NCBI GenBank assembly: GCA_045592485.1
Contig: JAZNUS010000037.1
Coordinates: 133-64,132 of the forward strand
DNA length: 64,000 nucleotides
Direction of reading: 5' to 3'
Source of the DNA: Clostridia bacterium
Lineage (GTDB): Bacteria > Bacillota > Clostridia > UMGS1810
Under the pieces are notes generated by a model that was not told the DNA's origin, did not search any database, and was given only the letters and a program-made list of their open reading frames with translations. The stretch's first letter is position 1. Every line of letters starts with the position of its first letter. Both the position numbers and the translations under genes were made by a program. Shown piece by piece: positions 52,276 through 64,000 of this stretch.

Positions 52276-52347
52276 GCGGGTGTAGTTCAATGGCTAGAAT
52301 CTCAGCCTTCCAAGCTGATTGTGTGGGTTCGATTCCCATCACCCGCT
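52276..52347 (+). tRNA. tRNA-Gly (anticodon UCC)
   Basis: Acceptor GCGGGTG/CACCCGC, anticodon loop CTTCCAA, T-loop TTCGATT. CCA is not encoded. Confidence 0.92.
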
Positions 52348-52362
52348 TCAATCTTTTTATTT

Positions 52363-52436
<74 letters not shown>

Positions 52437-52481
52437 CTCATCTTTCTTCAATCAGAATTAGCAAATAGGCTTACCACATAT

Positions 52482-52558
52482 GGTGGGTATAGTTCAGTTG
52501 GTAGAGCGCCAGATTGTGGTTCTGGATGTCACCGGTTCGAGTCCGGTTACCCACCCCA
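52482..52558 (+). tRNA. tRNA-His (anticodon GUG), with G-1 and encoded CCA
   Basis: An extra 5' G pairs with the discriminator C. Anticodon arm is CCAGA-TTGTGGT-TCTGG. Confidence 0.92.
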
Positions 52559-52572
52559 CTTTTTCTTAGCAT

Positions 52573-52646
52573 TGGGCTGTAGCCAAGTCGGTAAGGCACC
52601 AGATTTTGATTCTGGCATTTCGTAGGTTCGAGTCCTGCCAGCCCAG
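52573..52646 (+). tRNA. tRNA-Gln (anticodon UUG)
   Basis: Acceptor TGGGCTG/CAGCCCA and anticodon arm CCAGA-TTTTGAT-TCTGG. Confidence 0.92.
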
Positions 52647-52690
52647 TCCCTTTTGGGCAAAGGACAAGACCTTTTATATAAAACTAAATA

Positions 52691-52763
52691 CGGGCCATTA
52701 GCTCAGCCGGCAGAGCACTTGACTTTTAATCAAGGTGTCCGGAGTTCGAATCTCCGATGGCTC
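52691..52763 (+). tRNA. tRNA-Lys (anticodon UUU)
   Basis: Acceptor GGGCCAT/ATGGCTC, anticodon arm CTTGA-CTTTTAA-TCAAG, T-arm CGGAG-TTCGAAT-CTCCG. Confidence 0.93.
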
Positions 52764-52764
52764 A

Positions 52765-52796: not shown

Positions 52797-52875
52797 GTGC
52801 GTTCGTGAGATTTGAACTCCGCAGAGCAAGATTTGCAGGTCAAGTGCTCTGAACGGCTGAGCTAACGAAGCCGGA
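52797..52875 (-). pseudogene. Inverted tRNA-like pseudogene (tRNA-sized, 5' half about 90% identical to tRNA-Lys, no anticodon stem)
   Basis: The reverse complement reads GCTTCGTTAGCTCAGCCGTTCAGAGCACTTGACCTGCAAATCTTGCTCTGCGGAGTTCAAATCTCACGAACGCA. The D-arm and T-loop are recognisable, but the acceptor, anticodon and T stems do not pair. Confidence 0.6.
52816..52846 (+). repeat. 31-bp perfect direct repeat, copy 1 (CTCCGCAGAGCAAGATTTGCAGGTCAAGTGC)
   Basis: Identical to 53066-53096. It lies inside the tRNA-like pseudogene. Confidence 0.9.
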
Positions 52876-53048
52876 AGTTTTAAAGCCTTCCGCTGCCGGT
52901 GGCAGATGAAGGAAGGCTTTAAAAGGCGTAGCGGTCGAAGAAAGGGATGCACCCCTTGTGGGTGTATCTCTTGATTCGGGCACCGCAAGTGTCGTCCATA
53001 CAAAAGCTGTGATTAGATGAAATATGGCAGACCACTTAGCCTTTGCAA

Positions 53049-53070
53049 TGTGTCCGGAGTTCGAATCTCC
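53049..53070 (+). repeat. 22-bp duplicate of the tRNA-Lys variable/T-arm segment (GTGTCCGGAGTTCGAATCTCCG)
   Basis: Identical to 52734-52755 within tRNA-Lys. It lacks the 3' acceptor strand and runs directly into repeat copy 2. Confidence 0.9.
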
Positions 53071-53096
53071 GCAGAGCAAGATTTGCAGGTCAAGTG
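53066..53096 (+). repeat. 31-bp perfect direct repeat, copy 2
   Basis: Identical to 52816-52846, giving a 250-bp period. Confidence 0.9.
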
Positions 53097-54207
53097 CAGT
53101 CCTTGTGGTTTGTCTCACATATCGGTCGTCCTCGGTTCTCTTTGGAAGAGTAACATCTCTTGTGGGAGCAACACCTTTTTTCATTGCACCGTATTTTTTT
53201 ACAGCCTCGTCAATCCTTTTTTGTGCTTCCACATCAATTTCAAGCCTGCCGAGAGGTCCTGAATCTGATTCTGTAGAAGTAGTTCCGGTGTCGGGTTTGG
53301 ATTTTAAGATTCCTGTTTTTTCTTGTATGTCAAAGATATTTTTGACGACTTCTCTAAAAGCTGGGCTTCCGATAAATTTGGGTGATTTTCCCTGCAGAAC
53401 TGGAGCATATCTTGTATTGCTTCCTCTTCCTCGAGATCCAGCATTGTTATTTGCCATATCGTGCTTTTTTTGCACCTGATTATTGCTGCCAAGTAGCTCA
53501 TCAATAATTCTCGATTTTTCGATAGCACTTCTTTCACTTTCAATTACCTCCAATGCTCTTGTTAAAATATCTAATTCACGGTTTGCATTTCCGCCTTTAA
53601 CCTCATACAGAATAGTAGGTTTGTTTAAATTTTCCGTACTGTATATAACAAACAAATCTTCACCGTTAATTCTGCCTTTATACCAACAAGCAGTGTCGGT
53701 AATTCTTTTTGAGTCGGGAGCTCCGGCTTTTTGTATCCATTGTTCAACCATTTTAAGTTGTGTTTTGTTTAAATCGGTTCTCCAATATTGTTTATTATAC
53801 ATTACACCAACAGAATTTGCAATGTTTTTTTTGTTACTGTGCATCACACTCCCACTCTCAGCACCCTTAATCTTATACCCCTGATTCTTTTGGGTTGCCT
53901 TAAGCATATTATTGTAAGCTCTGAGTATTTTCGCCCTTTCACCCTCAAGCATTTTTACAGCTTCTTTAATTTCGGGTGACATCTTTCCGGGATTCTCACC
54001 CTTGTATCTGCCGATTACCTTGTCAAAAAATTCTTTGACGGCATCTATAACCTTTTGGACAAATCCTCTGTCCTCATTGGCAAAATTCTTCATAAAGGTT
54101 TCATCAAGTGTAAGAACTCTTGCGGTTACTTCCGCAATCATTTCCTCGGTCACAAGGTCTGCGTTAATTCTTCCCTTTTCGTCTGTTACCACAGATTTAT
54201 ATATCTA

Positions 54208-57148: not shown

Positions 57149-57841
57149 TCAGTCAATTTCTTCCTCAGGATCATACATATTGTCATATACATACTCGCAC
57201 CCGTTTCTCGCTGAAAGCAGGAACAGGAAGGCTAAAATAGCCTCACATATAATGTTGAGAACCAGCGAATTTTCAACATTAAAATAATCCCAATACACAT
57301 ATGATGCTACTGTTTTAAGAGACGGGAATCCACAGAACAGCGAGTACAGTGATGCAGCCATACAAAACAATGCTACACCTTCAAATATCAAAGGAATATA
57401 TTCTATTTCTCCGACTTTTCTGTTGGGTATGATGTTACACTTTATAAACAACGAATTTAAAAAATTCATGGTTGCAACCAGTGCAAAATAAAATACATAT
57501 CCCATATTCCTGTCAAATCCAAGTAAAATAACGAAGGTAACCGAAGAGGCAATAAGCACAAAGGCTGAAGCCTTGAAAAACCATCCGTAGAAGGCTTTTG
57601 TAAAAAACATTCCAAAAAACCCAACAAGTAATGCTGTGGAGATAATCTGAGGAATGTACAGATACCACATATCAAAATACAATTCATCCTGCTCATTTAT
57701 CATAAAAATATACATAGTCAGATCCACCAGAAATTTCATAACGAATCCGATCATTCCCAGCATAACCAGAGTTGAAACTGTTTTTTTCTTTAATTGCACA
57801 GACATGGCATCACGCTGTATTTCGCTTCGGGGTTTAAGCAT
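57149..57841 (-). CDS. Hypothetical polytopic membrane protein
   Basis: 230 aa with about 6 TM segments. No recognisable motif, and the start is uncertain. Confidence 0.45.
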   Translation of the reverse strand: MLKPRSEIQRDAMSVQLKKKTVSTLVMLGMIGFVMKFLVDLTMYIFMINEQDELYFDMWYLYIPQIISTALLVGFFGMFFTKAFYGWFFKASAFVLIASSVTFVILLGFDRNMGYVFYFALVATMNFLNSLFIKCNIIPNRKVGEIEYIPLIFEGVALFCMAASLYSLFCGFPSLKTVASYVYWDYFNVENSLVLNIICEAILAFLFLLSARNGCEYVYDNMYDPEEEID

Positions 57842-59554: not shown

Positions 59555-60448
59555 TTAATCTTTGAAAATCTGTTCCCTGGCAGTGATTGCCGCATCAGCA
59601 TCCATGTTGCAGCTGAGGTTATATATGGGAACAGTTTTGCAAATCTTATTTATTGTTTCTGTAACATCGTCAAACATTTCTTTTGAAAGAGGCGAAACCA
59701 TTGCATCGAAAAACCTTTGGGCAACGGCAAAAAAGCTTGTCTTTTCAATGGTGTTTGTTTCTCCGCGGGACAAAAACACAATAGCCCTGAGAGGTACTGC
59801 TTCATTGGAGTTGATTCCTGTGGAGCCTGCCCACGGTGTTCCATAGAGCATAACCTTCCCATCGTGAAGTGCCCTTATGATGGGAGTGTCGTCATTGATA
59901 ACCCTTACTCCGTCAAACTCCTTTTGCCAGAGAGATGTATGAGTGGATTTACCTGTCCCTGATTTAGCAGAAAACACCACACCCTCACCGCCAAAAGAAA
60001 TGGCAGAGGAATGAAACACAATGCCATCAAACTTTCTTATTGCATAGTGCATTGCACTGTCAATAAGATTAACAACAAAGCATTCGTCAGATATGTCATA
60101 AAGCTTTGTAACATCATATTTTGTGATTGTAATTTTTGAATAGTTTTCACCGAATACTGTCGTTGCAAGAATAATTCCGCTTTTTTCGTCATAGTCGATA
60201 ACAACATCATTATTTTCCTGTTTGGAATAATATTTTCCGGGGCAGAGCTTTGTAACAGCCGAAAAATCATTGTCAATTTTTTCGTCGGATTTTGTGATGA
60301 CAAATTCAATATCGGGCTCACCTTCAAACTCAAACCTGTATGGGGCATGTGACAGTTCAAGATTTTCATCATAGTCCGATGTGACTGAAATTTTTAAATC
60401 TGCAATTATGTATTTACTTGTCATAATCACATAAGGACCACCTTTCAA
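59555..60448 (-). CDS. HPr-kinase-like P-loop protein of the type found in RiPP (lasso/ScmC-type) clusters
   Basis: 297 aa with FHSSAISFGGEGVVFSAKSGTGKSTHTS...NDDTP...GTPWAG. The true start may be GTG 60430 or ATG 60424. Confidence 0.55.
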   Translation of the reverse strand: MKGGPYVIMTSKYIIADLKISVTSDYDENLELSHAPYRFEFEGEPDIEFVITKSDEKIDNDFSAVTKLCPGKYYSKQENNDVVIDYDEKSGIILATTVFGENYSKITITKYDVTKLYDISDECFVVNLIDSAMHYAIRKFDGIVFHSSAISFGGEGVVFSAKSGTGKSTHTSLWQKEFDGVRVINDDTPIIRALHDGKVMLYGTPWAGSTGINSNEAVPLRAIVFLSRGETNTIEKTSFFAVAQRFFDAMVSPLSKEMFDDVTETINKICKTVPIYNLSCNMDADAAITAREQIFKD

Positions 60449-60534: not shown

Positions 60535-60570
60535 AAAAAAAAGGTTGACTTGGTATGTCAACCTTTTTTT
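60535..60570 (-). terminator. Strong bidirectional terminator immediately after the 61-aa peptide gene
   Basis: AAAAAA AAGGTTGAC TTGGTAT GTCAACCTT TTTTT. Confidence 0.85.
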
Positions 60571-60590: not shown

Positions 60591-60776
60591 TTAGCCCTGA
60601 ATCTGAGAAGTGTTGATTGATGTAAGATCATACACTGTAAGGGGAATGTCATCTCCGTATGTGCCATCTGCAGCACCAGCAACAGGAGCAGTTTTAATTC
60701 CTGTGGGGAGAGCAGCCATTGTTTCCTTAACAGAAAGTTCAACAACATTGATTTCGGGTTTTACATAGTTTTTCAT
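60591..60776 (-). CDS. 61-aa candidate RiPP precursor peptide with a lasso-type leader
   Basis: Strong RBS (GAGGAG, 8 nt, ATG). The leader-like N-terminus MKNYVKPEINVVELSVKETM carries YxxP and a Thr at -2. The 41-aa Gly/Ala/Thr/Asp-rich remainder has no Cys. Confidence 0.6.
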   Translation of the reverse strand: MKNYVKPEINVVELSVKETMAALPTGIKTAPVAGAADGTYGDDIPLTVYDLTSINTSQIQG

Positions 60777-60798
60777 TTCAATATCTCCTCTCTGTTAA

Positions 60799-61614
60799 TT
60801 AGTTATCAATTTCTGCATAGAAATCGTCTTCTGTCACTGTACCAATTTTTTCAGGAAGCTTAAGCTGTACAGCTGCTTTTCCGCCTTCTGCAGCAAGAGC
60901 AGGATAGAAATGATTCTCATAAATCATACCAATCTTACCAATAGCTTCACTCTTGTCACCTGTGAAGGTAATTACACAAGTAGCAAGATATGCATCATTA
61001 GCATCGTCAAATTCAACATACTTTGCAGAATCATTAATTACAACATCAGTCTGCTGAGGCTGAGTTTCAACAACAAGCACATCACCGATTTTGAGTTCTA
61101 CTGTACCTACAAAGTCAACCTGAGCTTCACCGTTGATTTTAACAGCGGTAATTTCATAGCCATCTTTAGCAACAATAGTAGCATTAGCTGTATCTTCAGA
61201 ACCTGTGATTGCTTTTGTGAATTCTACTGTGTAAGTTTCAGCATTATCATCACCAAATTTTGCAAGAGGAAGAACATCACTTCCGTCTGTGATAGGTGTA
61301 TCACCGTCTGTACCGAAGGTTGCTAATGTGCTGAGATTGACATCAAGTTTATCAACTGCAATTTTGTAGTTGAATGTTGCGCTACCAGTATTATCTGCTG
61401 TAGCCTGATCAATGTACACGATATTGTCATTGGACTTTACGAGGTATGTAACCTCTTTACCTGCTTCTGCTGTTCTAACAGTTTCTGAAACAACAACCTT
61501 GTTGTTAGCCAAATCATAAGTTGTAGTTGCTGCTGCAAAACCTGTCATAGCAGTCGCCATTACTGCAACTGCTGAAAGAGCTGCAAAAATAGCTTTTAAT
61601 TTTCTGCTTTTCAT
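60799..61614 (-). CDS. Secreted beta-rich protein of unknown function, co-transcribed with the peptide
   Basis: About 271 aa from MKSRKLKAIFAALSAVAVMATAMTGFAAA (signal peptide). The upstream part of the ORF-track frame lies 5' of the predicted promoter. Confidence 0.6.
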   Translation of the reverse strand: MKSRKLKAIFAALSAVAVMATAMTGFAAATTTYDLANNKVVVSETVRTAEAGKEVTYLVKSNDNIVYIDQATADNTGSATFNYKIAVDKLDVNLSTLATFGTDGDTPITDGSDVLPLAKFGDDNAETYTVEFTKAITGSEDTANATIVAKDGYEITAVKINGEAQVDFVGTVELKIGDVLVVETQPQQTDVVINDSAKYVEFDDANDAYLATCVITFTGDKSEAIGKIGMIYENHFYPALAAEGGKAAVQLKLPEKIGTVTEDDFYAEIDN

Positions 61615-61654
61615 TTTGACATACATCTCCTTATTCATGTTTTTCGTTACAGTC

Positions 61655-61683
61655 ATTTTACCAAATAAAATCAACATTGTCAA
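61655..61683 (-). promoter_or_regulatory. Near-consensus SigA promoter for the secreted-protein/peptide cassette
   Basis: On the minus strand: TTGACA, 17 nt, TAAAAT. Confidence 0.6.
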
Positions 61684-61779: not shown

Positions 61780-63462
61780 TTATTCGCAGATTATTTTCTT
61801 GTCACAAATTTTGAGCACCTTGTCGCTTGCTGCCAATGAGCCTTCCTTGTGCGAAATAATAATGCAGGTGCGGTCCTTTAGTGCGCGTATGTTTTCGAGA
61901 AGCTGTTTTTCGCATTCCTCATCAAGAGCTGAGGTCGCCTCGTCCAGAAGAAGCACATGGGCACCTGTGCAAATTGCTCTTGCTATGGCAAGTCTTTGAA
62001 TCTGCCCCTCCGAAAGACCGAGACCCCCTTCGCCAAGGACTGTGTTGTAGCCATTGGGAAGATTTTTTATCACTTCATCTATACACGCAACCTTTGCAGC
62101 ATTTTCCACTTCTTCATCGCTTATTCCGTCGGACATAAATCTTATGTTGTCACCGACAGTGCCCGAAAGAATCATATTCCCCTGAGGAACATAGGCAAAA
62201 AGACTTCTCGCCGAAGCGTCGGCACTATAGTCTTTGTCGCTGCATTTTATAAACACTCTGCCGTTGTCGGGTTCGAGTATGCCAAGGAGCATTTTCATAA
62301 AAGTGCTTTTCCCTATTCCCGAAATACCTGCAATTGCAGTGATTGAATTTTTTTCTATTGTAACAGAGGCTGAATCAAAGATTTTTTCAGAGTCAAATGA
62401 AAAACCGATGTCCTGTGCAACGATAGCCTCCATTGAAGCATAGACCTTTTCAGCATCGAAATCCCTGTTGGAATATTCTTCGTCGGGAAGCTCTTCTATT
62501 TCCATTATGCGCTCTGCCGATGCAGTCATTGCAAAAACCTGGGGAACAACTCCTGCCAGCTCACGGAAGGGAGTCTGAATCTGACCTACAAGCTGAATTA
62601 TGGCGGTGAATGTGCCAACGGTCATTATGCCTTTTGAAATTTTCACTGCACACCAGCCCACAGCGAAGTAATAGCCAATGGTCAGAAACACATAGAACAA
62701 AAGATTTGCAAAAATGCTGAAATAACCTTTTTTCATCACATATTTAAGATTAGTCTTCTGGAGTGCCTTAACCGAATCGGTAACTCTGTCATAGGCACCA
62801 AAGGATTTTACAACAAGAATGTTGCGGAGTGTTTCAAGAATAAAAGAATGGGTTTTCCCCTGTGATTCCAAAGCCTTTTTGTGAATGGGTTTCATAAAAC
62901 GGCTATATATGCGTGCAACAATCAGAACAAAGGGACCTATAATCAGAAATATGAGTGCAAAATCACTGTCAAGGGCATAGAGAGCTGAAAAACCGAGAAT
63001 TATTCTTGACACAAAGGCGAGAACATTGGGCACAATTGCCAGCACTCCCGAGGTGACAATCCCGGCATCGCCGTTAAGTCTGTTGAGAATGCCGCCCGTG
63101 TGGTAGGCTGATAAAGATTCCCACTTTTTGCCAAGGAGTTTTTTGTAAGTATTTCTTTGAATTCTGTGCTTGAATGCGGTTTCAGTGTTGATGTGAACCA
63201 GTGTGCTGACTGTCTGTATGACAAGCTGCACAATTACAAGCACAACAAGCTTTATGATACTGTCTTTCAAGCTGCCGGAGGTGCCGGTGTTTATTGCGGC
63301 ATCAAGAAGCTCCTTTGACACAAGTGCAAACCTTACCGAAATCCACGAAATACACATTGCACAAATCGCAACAAAAAATATTCTGAGATATACGGGACGG
63401 GCGACTTCAAGAAGCCACCTTACCGATTTGTATTTTTTTTCTTCCATTATATATACCCTCAT
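61780..63462 (-). CDS. ABC exporter, fused permease/ATPase
   Basis: 560 aa with 6 N-terminal TM segments, Walker A GISGIGKST, signature LSEGQ and Walker B LLLDEATSALD. ATGA overlap with the upstream peptidase gene. Confidence 0.88.
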   Translation of the reverse strand: MRVYIMEEKKYKSVRWLLEVARPVYLRIFFVAICAMCISWISVRFALVSKELLDAAINTGTSGSLKDSIIKLVVLVIVQLVIQTVSTLVHINTETAFKHRIQRNTYKKLLGKKWESLSAYHTGGILNRLNGDAGIVTSGVLAIVPNVLAFVSRIILGFSALYALDSDFALIFLIIGPFVLIVARIYSRFMKPIHKKALESQGKTHSFILETLRNILVVKSFGAYDRVTDSVKALQKTNLKYVMKKGYFSIFANLLFYVFLTIGYYFAVGWCAVKISKGIMTVGTFTAIIQLVGQIQTPFRELAGVVPQVFAMTASAERIMEIEELPDEEYSNRDFDAEKVYASMEAIVAQDIGFSFDSEKIFDSASVTIEKNSITAIAGISGIGKSTFMKMLLGILEPDNGRVFIKCSDKDYSADASARSLFAYVPQGNMILSGTVGDNIRFMSDGISDEEVENAAKVACIDEVIKNLPNGYNTVLGEGGLGLSEGQIQRLAIARAICTGAHVLLLDEATSALDEECEKQLLENIRALKDRTCIIISHKEGSLAASDKVLKICDKKIICE

Positions 63463-63929
63463 TTAAGAAACCTTCTGTATAATCTTGCCCCAAGTGTGAG
63501 AGTTTTTTTTGCAAAAGGTCTCACAGGAAATGCAAAAACCCAGAATGCGGTGTACAGTTTGTACCACAAAGCATTGACACTGTCTTCAGTACCCATTCGC
63601 ACAAAGGATTTCATAACTGCAAGACAATCTTCTTTTTTTACAGGATATTCCTTAACTGTTTCATTGTCGCCGGCAAATGTGAACAATCCGTTTTTTTTCT
63701 TTATTATACGGTGAAGCACAAACCTGCCGTCAGCTCTTTGGAAAAGAACCACATCGCCCTTTTTAAAGGATGATGCCGGAGACAGAGTCACCGTGTCTCT
63801 TTGGTCACGAAACAAGGGATACATACTGTTTCCTGTAACAGTGAGCCGGACACTCTTGCCATCCTTCAGTGCTGACTGAATGTAGGGAGCAATTTCGTTT
63901 ATGCTTGGTCTGAAATACTGTGCTACCAT
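63459..63929 (-). CDS. S24/S26-type Ser peptidase with SipW/ER-like Ser-His signature and no N-terminal anchor
   Basis: 156 aa with GNSMYPLF (Ser) and VLHRII (His where bacterial type I SPases have Lys). The only hydrophobic segment is C-terminal (LWYKLYTAFWVFAFPV). Confidence 0.6.
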   Translation of the reverse strand: MVAQYFRPSINEIAPYIQSALKDGKSVRLTVTGNSMYPLFRDQRDTVTLSPASSFKKGDVVLFQRADGRFVLHRIIKKKNGLFTFAGDNETVKEYPVKKEDCLAVMKSFVRMGTEDSVNALWYKLYTAFWVFAFPVRPFAKKTLTLGARLYRRFLK

Positions 63930-63931
63930 TA

Positions 63932-64000
63932 TTATTTCTCCAGTATGCCGTGTTCAAAGAGCAGGTCGGCAAATGCGTTTATATCAGCGGCAAGTTCTTC
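63932..64000 (-). CDS. 3' end of a gene truncated by the window edge (possibly a PqqD-like RRE protein)
   Basis: 23 codons ...EELAADINAFADLLFEHGILEK then stop, 2 nt before the peptidase start. The PqqD idea rests only on the tail resembling ...F(L/V)xxLxxxG(L/I)(L/I). Confidence 0.25.
   Translation of the reverse strand, partial: EELAADINAFADLLFEHGILEK

Follow-up and report, generated by a model that had tools for sequence, protein, structure and literature searches.

A lasso-type leader in front of a core that cannot form a lasso ring: a probable precursor of a linear polyphosphorylated peptide-like pathway in a gut Clostridia bacterium

How can a leader of the lasso type stand in front of a core that cannot close a lasso ring? 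This question is raised by a peptide of 61 amino acids, MKNYVKPEINVVELSVKETMAALPTGIKTAPVAGAADGTYGDDIPLTVYDLTSINTSQIQG, which we translated from an open reading frame (ORF) in a 64,000-nucleotide stretch of DNA (hereafter, the window) from an uncultured ruminant-gut Clostridia bacterium (contig JAZNUS010000037.1). A preliminary description of this ORF had pointed out the motif Y4-V-K-P7, a Thr residue (T19) penultimate to an assumed cleavage site ETM|A, and the absence of Cys, and our analysis confirmed all of these points. When the core is counted from A21, its positions 7-9 are I-K-T and its first acidic residue is D17, so that a macrolactam of 7-9 residues is impossible, as had also been stated. 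Two options were then offered, i.e., that the leader was co-opted for another kind of modification, or that the gene is a decayed precursor. The evidence favors the former, because the gene set and the spacing of the leader residues are like those of the linear polyphosphorylated peptides (LPPs) of Bacilli, which were described by Popov et al. (Nat Commun 2026; PMC13381572). We think it rather probable that the ORF encodes the precursor (A) peptide of an LPP-like pathway for peptides made on the ribosome and modified after translation (RiPPs). The features of the locus are listed in Table 1.

The possibility of decay can be considered from the conservation of the peptide. A search of 5.8 billion proteins gave 12 full-length homologues of 60-63 amino acids, which showed 52-77% identity and no frameshifts. 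In their alignment, the N-terminus, MKNYVKPEINVVELSVKETMAALPAGIQT, and the C-terminus, (D/N)IPLTVYNLTSLNTSQVNG, were nearly invariant, and the middle region varied in sequence and length. We also calculated the ratio of nonsynonymous to synonymous differences per site (pN/pS) by Nei-Gojobori counts over six orthologous genes. The value was 0.24 for residues 1-21, 0.61 for residues 22-29, 1.13 for residues 30-43, and 0.32 for residues 44-61. These values indicate that the leader and the C-terminal 18 residues are under purifying selection and that the middle drifts. That is, the peptide consists of three parts: a constrained leader, a freely drifting linker, and a constrained C-terminal module with T-V-Y-D/N-L...N-T-S. 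Because the homologues are conserved and intact and the selection is purifying, a decayed gene is excluded, and the option of a decayed precursor had to be abandoned. In the homologues, which were to reveal a pseudogene by frameshifts or by an unconserved core, only the middle of the core is variable.

The peptide belongs to no family of Pfam or NCBIfam, and a profile search of the PDB with the peptide alignment gave no match. The exact sequence of the window peptide gave no record when it was looked up, and the homologues P0012 and P0008 were used instead. No other match to the leader motif of the family was found in the six frames of the window.

We compared the leader with the leaders of LPPs. 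In Paenibacillus alginolyticus the LPP cluster is lppA-K-B-S-D-N, and the LPP genes encode a SipW-like archaeal-type signal peptidase I (LppS), a discrete RiPP recognition element (RRE; LppB), an HprK-like kinase (LppK), an NTP transferase (LppN), and an MsbA-like pump (LppD); LppS, LppB, LppK and LppD together with LppA yield a leader-cleaved, linear polyphosphorylated peptide (PMC13381572). The precursors share the motif YxxPxVLxHQxIxFETxxS. Binding to the RRE needs Y-16 and P-13, and F-3, E-2, T-1 and L-10 affect cleavage. LppS cuts after T-1, LppB is required for this, and the unphosphorylated precursor is cleaved inefficiently (PMC13381572).

When 11 published LPP precursors were anchored on the Tyr of YxxP, they had Y+0, P+3, V+5, E+14 and T+15, and the window peptide had Y+0, P+3, I+5, E+14 and T+15. 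That is, Y4, P7, I9, E18 and T19 stand at the spacing of Y-16, P-13, V-11, E-2 and T-1 of LppA. The window peptide differs from the LPP motif in having N for L+6, V-E for H+8/Q+9, K for F+13 and A for S+18. Because of these differences, including that at F+13, the published search motif for LPP precursors, Px9Fx[T/A] (PMC13381572), would miss the window peptide.

The comparison also bears on the site of cleavage. By analogy with the LPP register, the scissile bond is predicted to be T19|M20. The register ETM|A proposed earlier is probably off by one, because the homologous LPP cut follows the Thr itself (T-1) and not the residue after it. Across the wider family E-x-h-A is conserved and position +15 is variable, so that, judging from these sequences, recognition could extend to A21 and the cut could fall at A21|A22. 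Such a cut would place small residues at -3 (T19) and -1 (A21), and if it is the real one, the register ETM|A is off by one in the opposite direction. Of the three possibilities, the ETM|A register has the least support.

Y4, P7 and T19 also fit the signature of lasso leaders (YxxP and Thr at -2), in the register Y-17/P-14/T-2 when Ala is the first residue of the core. Because the same residues are common to LPP leaders, the signature does not discriminate between the two. The core, AALPTGIKTAPVAGAAD..., has no Asp or Glu at positions 7-9, and the LPP register gives no ring acceptor either. We found no SGGxDS PP-loop of a lasso cyclase in the six-frame translation of the window, no Asn-synthase or cyclase gene in the syntenic loci, no Pfam match to a transglutaminase-like B/B2 Cys protease among the genes of loci L001 and L003, and no recurrent family of that kind around the 51 related loci described below. 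Thus the claim that the leader is of the lasso or RRE-binding type stands, with its YxxP motif and a PqqD-family RRE in the cluster, and the claim that it is read by the B1/B2 machinery of lasso peptides falls, since the cluster has neither a B2 protease nor a cyclase.

The genes around the peptide gene are those expected of an LPP-like system. The order RRE - S24 peptidase - ABC exporter - secreted protein X294 - peptide - ScmC-like gene is kept in loci L001, L003 and L005-L007, and the contigs of P0012 and P0008 have the same order as the window. The RRE gene is cut by the end of the window; in the contigs of P0012 and P0008 a full PqqD gene of 88 amino acids is present and is preceded by an orphan protein of 348-354 amino acids (X348). 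The syntenic loci are flanked by housekeeping genes (SMC, FtsY and RNase HII upstream, HU and LOG downstream).

The RRE of L001, orthologous to that of the window, matched PF05402 (E = 2.5e-14), and its sole sequence match in the PDB was a weak one to chain B of 9x8z, the LppB-leader complex (E = 0.36). In the pairwise alignment, its N35, D73 and F77 correspond to N33, D70 and F74 of LppB, which fix the kink at Pro, hydrogen-bond Tyr and sandwich Pro, respectively (PMC13381572). The equivalent Asp and Phe are present in the C-terminal fragment of the RRE in the window itself. Weak NCBIfam matches of this PqqD protein were to models of lasso PqqD chaperones. In BLASTP against the sequences of Supplementary Data 1 of the LPP paper, the RRE showed 36-49% identity to the 'other RREs' of cluster 4 (E down to 3e-27) and about 27-35% identity, in partial alignments, to the LPP RREs. 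It groups with the 'other RRE' class and not with the LPP RREs. The peptidase/RRE clusters of cluster 4 of the sequence similarity network (SSN) are listed in those data as RRE-associated, with precursors and chemistry 'ND' (PMC13381572).

The peptidase matched PF00717 (E = 1.9e-9), and its best NCBIfam match was TIGR02228, archaeal-type signal peptidase I (E = 4.4e-10), below the cut-off of the model. The residues proposed for catalysis, S35, H73 and D88, do not vary and correspond to S29, H68 and D93 of LppS. In BLASTP the peptidase was 32-35% identical to members of SSN cluster 4 from Desulfosporosinus, Dehalobacter and Anaerocolumna (E from 6e-27 to 3e-24), 33% identical to a Ruminococcus member of cluster 9, and about 28% identical to five LPP sequences of cluster 1. 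Membership of cluster 1 is defined by edges at E < 1e-23 to LppS of the P. alginolyticus type, and the best E value to the five cluster-1 sequences was 1.4e-12; the peptidase lies outside cluster 1. The exporter had the MsbA model TIGR02203 as its top NCBIfam match (2.1e-70), in addition to ABC_membrane and ABC_tran.

Between the peptide stop codon and the start of the downstream ScmC-like gene lie 160 nt, and the ORF of the latter can be extended to a TTG at 60448 (291-297 amino acids). Its best NCBIfam matches are TIGR04249 (ScmC), TIGR04352 (HprK-related kinase A) and TIGR04355 (HprK-related kinase B), the three models that the LPP paper pools in its category 'HprK kinase' (PMC13381572). 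The score against the ScmC model was 24 bits, compared with an equivalog cut-off of 125. An AlphaFold2 (AF2) model of the protein had a predicted local distance difference test score (pLDDT) of 95.8, and its top Foldseek matches were ATP-PEPCK and HprK/P. In 117 homologues the Walker A sequence SGTGKSTH and an N-D-D motif were invariant or nearly so. The 527 homologues found are all annotated as 'hypothetical', and nearly all among the 120 matches listed carry PF27840. In most of the 34 loci that have a ScmC-like gene, the peptide gene lies directly upstream of it, and in most of them the end of the peptide gene is about 0-250 nt from the start of the ScmC-like gene, which is the arrangement of lppA and lppK. 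From the shared NCBIfam models, the fold and the gene position, we liken this protein to LppK and regard it as a putative kinase.

If the protein is such a kinase, which residue does it modify? LppK polyphosphorylates Ser3 of the core and accepts neither Thr nor Tyr (PMC13381572). The core of the window peptide has only two Ser residues, of which S57 is the only core Ser that is invariant in the 13 aligned homologues; it is also Ser in L005-L007. By analogy with the LPPs, the peptide is probably modified by phosphorylation. Because of the specificity of LppK and the invariance of S57 among so few Ser residues, S57 is our best guess for the phospho-acceptor, with low confidence.

Taken together, the pathway may be pictured as follows. 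The PqqD-type RRE would bind Y4-x-x-P7-x-I9 as a beta-strand, with D73 (matching D70 of LppB) hydrogen-bonding the Tyr, and would present the end of the leader, E18-T19-M20-A21, to the SipW-type Ser/His/Asp peptidase. A cut would then remove the leader, either following T19, as for LppA, or following A21. The ScmC/HprK-like P-loop enzyme would phosphorylate the peptide with ATP, most likely at S57, and the MsbA-like ABC transporter would export a linear peptide of about 40-42 residues with no macrolactam. Each of these steps, from RRE binding and RRE-dependent leader removal to phosphorylation and export, is modeled on its LPP homologue.

Table 1. Features of the peptide locus. Positions are those of the window, except in the last row, where they are given as locus:positions.
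Feature	Position	Strand	Basis
Precursor peptide gene, LppA-like, 61 aa + stop	60591..60776	-	ORF and translation; 12 homologues; profile matches in ~40 related loci; pN/pS
Leader, residues 1-19, MKNYVKPEINVVELSVKET	60720..60776	-	Anchored comparison with 11 LPP and 39 Clostridial precursors; LPP mutagenesis and structure (PMC13381572)
YxxP RRE-binding motif	60756-60767	-	Leader comparison
Possible extension of the recognition element to M20-A21	60714-60719	-	Family conservation
Variable core middle, residues 30-43 (sequence and length)	60648..60689	-	Homologue alignment; pN/pS 1.13
Conserved C-terminal core module, residues 44-61, DIPLTVYDLTSINTSQIQG-type, with T-V-Y-D/N-L and S57	60594..60647	-	Alignment; pN/pS 0.32; motif recurs in other cluster types
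Shine-Dalgarno AGGAGA, 7 nt before ATG	60784..60789	-	Direct sequence reading
Hairpin and U-run between peptide and kinase-like genes	60536..60570	-	Folding
Promoter-like site TTGACA-17-TGnTAAAAT, 11/12 match, 5' of X294 and peptide gene	61655..61683	-	Consensus match only
Polytopic membrane protein, 230 aa, closest cluster type only; immunity or envelope role?	57149..57841	-	ORF; gene maps
SLH-domain cell-wall protein, 537 aa	57862..59475	-	Pfam SLH; co-occurrence
ScmC/HprK-like P-loop protein, putative peptide kinase, LppK analogue, 291 aa (database gene call P0014)	59555..60430	-	NCBIfam; fold
Secreted protein X294, 294 aa, signal peptide, no family match	60799..61683	-	ORF; hhalign
MsbA-like ABC exporter (permease + ATPase, no C39 peptidase domain), LppD analogue	61780..63462	-	Pfam ABC_membrane/ABC_tran; TIGR02203
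SipW/archaeal-type signal-peptidase-I-like S24/S26 serine peptidase, 156 aa, putative leader peptidase, LppS analogue	63459..63929	-	PF00717; TIGR02228
PqqD-family RRE, last 22 codons + stop, cut by window end, ...EELAADINAFADLLFEHGILEK	63932..64000	-	Translation; full genes in L001, L003
X294 counterparts	L009:10503-11486, L011:14960-15883, L013:5316-6350, L017:3881-5002, L032:6281-7270		Shared N-terminal domain

We then considered how widely this system occurs. One genome per species was scanned with an alignment of six peptidase sequences, and this gave 51 loci, almost all from uncultured Clostridia of ruminant, human and other guts. Genes were counted with iterated profiles over 56 sources (the 51 loci, earlier loci and the window): an RRE was found in 48, a ScmC-like gene in 34, an SLH protein in 13, X294 in eight and X348 in six, and the ABC exporter in most. 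The peptide profile matched same-strand small ORFs in about 40 of the 51 loci. From 39 distinct sequences we obtained the leader consensus Y-[VI]-K-P-x-h-E-h-[VI]-E-L-x-x-x-E-x-[IML]-A, in which Y, P, L+10, E+14, A+17 and the hydrophobic position +16 show hardly any variation.

Gene maps divided the loci into several types. Type A is that of the window. Types B, C and D have the peptidase/RRE pair, an X294-like secreted protein, the peptide, a ScmC-like gene and SLH, and in type C (L017) NTP_transf_5 stands where type A has X348. Type E comprises Wzz-Wzz-CpsB loci with no ScmC-like gene. Type F has the order RRE - radical SAM - Cys-rich peptide - ScmC-like - peptidase - ABC - NTP_transf_5 and includes Anaerocolumna xylanovorans (L050), an organism of SSN cluster 4 in the LPP paper, and type G is a compact form. 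Recurrent neighbours in Pfam terms are CpsB/CapC, Wzz/GNVR, Polysacc_synt_2, NTP_transf_5, Radical_SAM and VanZ.

Two of these variants deserve description in their own right. The kinase-free variant in capsule loci (L011, L012, L016, L018 and L021-L023; e.g., L011:9673-16965) has the order RRE, peptidase, ABC, two proteins with a copper-amine-oxidase N-domain, two secreted proteins, and a precursor ending ...TTTYNMALLxEGSQI. We asked whether f17, which precedes the peptide gene in the kinase-free clusters, is a diverged ScmC, and rejected this (hhalign probability 0.7%). In the other variant, a radical SAM enzyme, NTP_transf_5 and Cys-rich cores are combined with the same leader/RRE/peptidase/ScmC-like chassis (L033-L037, L040, L041, L045, L050 and L053; e.g., L050:7507-14717, with a Cys-rich core such as ...ATCHGGYINYNIW...GCS). 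L033-L035 have up to three different precursors, one of which is rich in Gly, His and Asn and ends in WGWFFPW. L047 of Paenibacillus doosanensis was considered as a bona fide LPP locus and set aside, because it encodes a cluster-4-type RRE and a search for an LppA-like ORF in it gave none.

Several observations weigh against the reading of the peptide as an LPP-like precursor. Identity to bona fide LPP proteins is only about 28% for the peptidase and the RRE. K and N replace F-3 and L-10, two residues of importance for cleavage by LppS. T19 varies across the wider Clostridial family (39 distinct sequences) and E-x-h-A is kept; therefore, the scissile bond may differ from that of LPPs. The acceptor Ser of LPPs at core position 3 is A22 here and A or D in the homologues. 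C-terminal Ser residues are not significantly enriched across the ScmC-containing clusters (18 observed, 14.4 expected), and we dropped a general C-terminal Ser rule for these clusters. The type A loci have no NTP_transf_5, which occurs in 12 related loci belonging to other types. A ScmC-like gene is missing from five clusters with related peptides (type E), and phosphorylation is therefore not obligatory for the wider family. Finally, the phosphorylation, the phosphosite and the cleavage position are all inferred.

On these grounds we regard the cluster of the window as a Clostridial sister family of the LPPs, whose precursors had not been defined in the literature that we searched. It is a sister family and not LPP proper because its peptidase lies outside SSN cluster 1, its leader keeps only E and T of the FET-xx-S motif, and Ser3 and LppN were not found in it.

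The genes that accompany the peptide gene point to the cell envelope. Neither X294 nor X348 belongs to a family of Pfam or NCBIfam. The N-terminal domain of X294 is shared with the secreted counterparts f16 and f51 (hhalign probability 92-93%), and in types A-E the gene just ahead of the peptide gene encodes a secreted protein with a related N-terminal domain. As a tentative lead, the X294-type proteins begin, in their mature form, with ATTTYDL or ATYTTTTxY, which is similar to the peptide motif T-[TV]-Y-[DN]-[LM]. The SLH protein, of about 540 amino acids, accompanies the peptidase/RRE pair in the window and 12 related loci, thus 13 in all, and in more than one arrangement; in L013, L015, L019 and L027 its gene lies divergently upstream of the RRE. 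Because the co-occurrence includes such divergent arrangements, it suggests a functional link and not mere synteny, and the SLH protein is a candidate member of the system. LPP clusters are often located within capsule loci (PMC13381572). From the neighbouring SLH protein, the secreted Ig-like protein X294 and the presence of related clusters in Wzz/CpsB capsule loci, we think that the product probably acts at the cell envelope.

X348 (348 amino acids; L001:5377-6423) lies 5' of the RRE in the closest cluster type only, and its orthologue in the present genome would sit beyond position 64000. Among 1.84 billion representative proteins we found 34 relatives, all of about 345 amino acids. A profile of 29 relatives matched the rifampin phosphotransferase of Listeria (5fbs/5hv1, deposited as 'phosphoenolpyruvate synthase') with E = 2.8e-7. 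Residues 39-142 of X348 align with chain residues 249-351, and residues 277-345 with 686-751; no other regions of the chain were aligned. In that structure the matched stretches cover the final part of the ATP-grasp domain and both ends of the domain that binds rifampin; outside the match lie the beginning of the chain and its C-terminal region, which has the phospho-histidine domain. X348 may be a substrate-binding accessory protein. It stands at the position of NTP_transf_5 in L017, and its identity as a diverged NTP_transf_5 was considered and rejected (hhalign probability 0.1%). The AF2 model of X348, built from a two-sequence alignment, had a pLDDT of 32.6 and was left out of the fold search.

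The hairpin between the peptide and kinase-like genes has a stem of 14 bp, starts 20 nt past the peptide stop codon, and has a minimum free energy of -17.3 kcal/mol (z = -5.5); none of 200 shuffled sequences folded equally well. It can act as an intrinsic terminator or attenuator, and its symmetry can let both strands use it. Since a strong promoter-like site, near the consensus and with an extended -10 element, precedes X294, this gene and the peptide gene may constitute a unit of high expression that is attenuated ahead of the downstream enzyme gene, and they may be transcribed apart from the RRE, peptidase and ABC genes. The same site sits inside the 5' end of the longest X294 ORF, and for this reason the real start of X294 is probably an internal ATG near 61614-61638. 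In a gut metatranscriptome, contigs were 90-95% identical to the leader-coding part, to X294 and to the ABC gene. This is a weak hint of expression in relatives, as contig depth is a poor measure of expression and carry-over of DNA is possible.

Could the peptide instead be exported without modification, as a leader-dependent bacteriocin or signalling pheromone, with the RRE and peptidase serving for leader removal alone, the ABC transporter for export, and the ScmC-like protein acting on another substrate or in a non-catalytic role? The pN/pS value of about 1.1 in the middle recalls the diversification of pherotypes and bacteriocins, the polytopic membrane protein could be an immunity protein, the type E relatives do without a ScmC-like gene, and the LPP acceptor Ser is missing at core position 3. 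However, the peptide and ScmC-like genes remain tightly adjacent across very different architectures, the kinase-like protein is conserved and its P-loop invariant, and no sensor kinase or response regulator was found among the cluster genes by Pfam and NCBIfam. Moreover, the LPP kinase acts on the precursor, the unphosphorylated form of which is cleaved poorly. We therefore consider an unmodified peptide rather unlikely.

A structural role is also conceivable. In one form, which we think unlikely, the peptide is no natural product of the antibiotic type and is a matured and possibly phosphorylated component of the envelope, whose T-V-Y-D/N-L pairs with the 'ATTTYDL' N-terminus of X294 or shares a modification or recognition site with it, next to a wall protein anchored by SLH domains. 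If this is true, the leader/RRE/peptidase machinery of RiPPs has been recruited to build or decorate the Gram-positive cell surface. As the Clostridial version of this machinery also feeds radical-SAM variants with Cys-rich cores and kinase-free variants, a broad and hardly explored superfamily is suggested, in which the LPPs of Bacilli form one branch. In the other form, quite unlikely in our view, an envelope or structural peptide is the partner of X294 and SLH, and T-V-Y-D-L mimics or complements the 'ATTTYDL' strand of X294 or is a modification site common to both. The related secreted protein that precedes the peptide gene in types A-E, the likeness of ATTTYDL and ATYTTTTxY to the peptide motif, the SLH protein in 13 loci including inverted arrangements, and the related clusters in capsule loci are consistent with such a partnership. 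Yet the resemblance is that of a short Thr-rich motif, synteny among related Clostridia may partly explain the co-occurrence, and the idea is compatible with LPP-like maturation and does not exclude it.

That the peptide is a lasso precursor, with an unusual ring or as a decayed remnant and with its cyclase and B2 elsewhere in the genome, is very improbable: the YxxP/Thr register and the weak PqqD chaperone matches fit it, but it is largely refuted already by the lack of Asp or Glu at core positions 7-9 in any plausible register, the lack of a PP-loop in the window, syntenic loci that contain no Asn-synthase or transglutaminase genes and are flanked by housekeeping genes, a non-lasso protease of the cluster's own, and, for a remnant, the intact ORFs and purifying selection in the 12 homologues.

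Elsewhere in the window, five tRNA genes lie at 52276-52764 on the plus strand (Gly-TCC, Arg-TCT, His-GTG, Gln-TTG and Lys-TTT), and several small 'ORFs' listed there are translated tRNA genes. Directly next to the tRNA-Lys gene is an ORF of 450 amino acids with no obvious family (52840-54192, minus strand). Towards its C-terminus it has repeats of a tRNA-like peptide string (DLQILLCG...), which is also found in an overlapping ORF of 101 amino acids, and it may be the remnant of a tRNA-integrated element or an over-extended ORF.

Returning to the LPP-like precursor, the puzzle of a lasso leader that lacks a lasso core is already explained by the published work on LPPs. A leader in Bacillota that looks like that of a lasso peptide does not by itself mean a lasso peptide; the call depends on which protease is encoded nearby (SipW-type or B2) and on whether a cyclase is present. 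In the literature searched, no precursors earlier than those described here were found for the Clostridial clusters with a SipW-type peptidase and an RRE, which were listed in the 2026 LPP paper and left uncharacterised. These clusters come in several flavours (kinase only; kinase with radical SAM and NTP transferase; kinase-free), and Px9Fx[T/A] would miss their precursors. If the product is confirmed, LPP-type chemistry would extend to abundant uncultured Clostridia of the gut and rumen, and the system would offer a tractable test of peptide action at the capsule or S-layer.

Comparison with known systems places the cluster as follows. The SynChlorMet cassette (ScmC/ScmD with the radical SAM enzymes ScmE/ScmF) likewise pairs a ScmC-family P-loop protein with a PqqD-family protein, whereas the window cluster has no radical SAM/SPASM enzyme and its ScmC match is far below the cut-off. 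The paeninodin lasso peptides (padeA/K/C/B1/B2/D) resemble it in having a [Y/W]xxP leader bound by an RRE, an HprK-like kinase with a precursor Ser as its target, and an ABC exporter, but they need an Asn-synthetase-like cyclase, a B2 Cys protease, WxxP and a ring acceptor at 7-9, all of which are absent here. The pairs of SSN cluster 4 are the closest published peptidase and RRE sequences, and the Anaerocolumna xylanovorans precursor of L050 is in the same leader family. However, the cluster 4 loci (type F) have a radical-SAM enzyme, NTP_transf_5 and Cys-rich cores, and the window cluster has neither enzyme.

From the LPPs themselves the window cluster differs in its Clostridial host, LPPs being of Bacilli, and in a peptidase and RRE that are about 28% identical and group with SSN cluster 4. 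Its leader has K for F-3, N for L-10 and no H-Q pair, with E-x-h-A and not F-E-T family-wide. Its core lacks Ser3, is not rich in Gly, Asn, Lys or His, and carries the conserved C-terminal T-V-Y-N-L...N-T-S module. The cluster type lacks NTP_transf_5 and has X348, X294, SLH540 and the membrane protein in addition. The likeness lies in a precursor gene followed by an HprK/ScmC-type gene, a discrete PqqD-type RRE, a SipW-type Ser/His/Asp peptidase, an MsbA-like exporter and no cyclase; in leader Y, P, hydrophobic residue, E and T at identical spacing, with the Asn, Asp and Phe of the RRE kept; and in the occurrence of relatives of the window cluster in Wzz/CpsB/Polysacc_synt_2 capsule loci.

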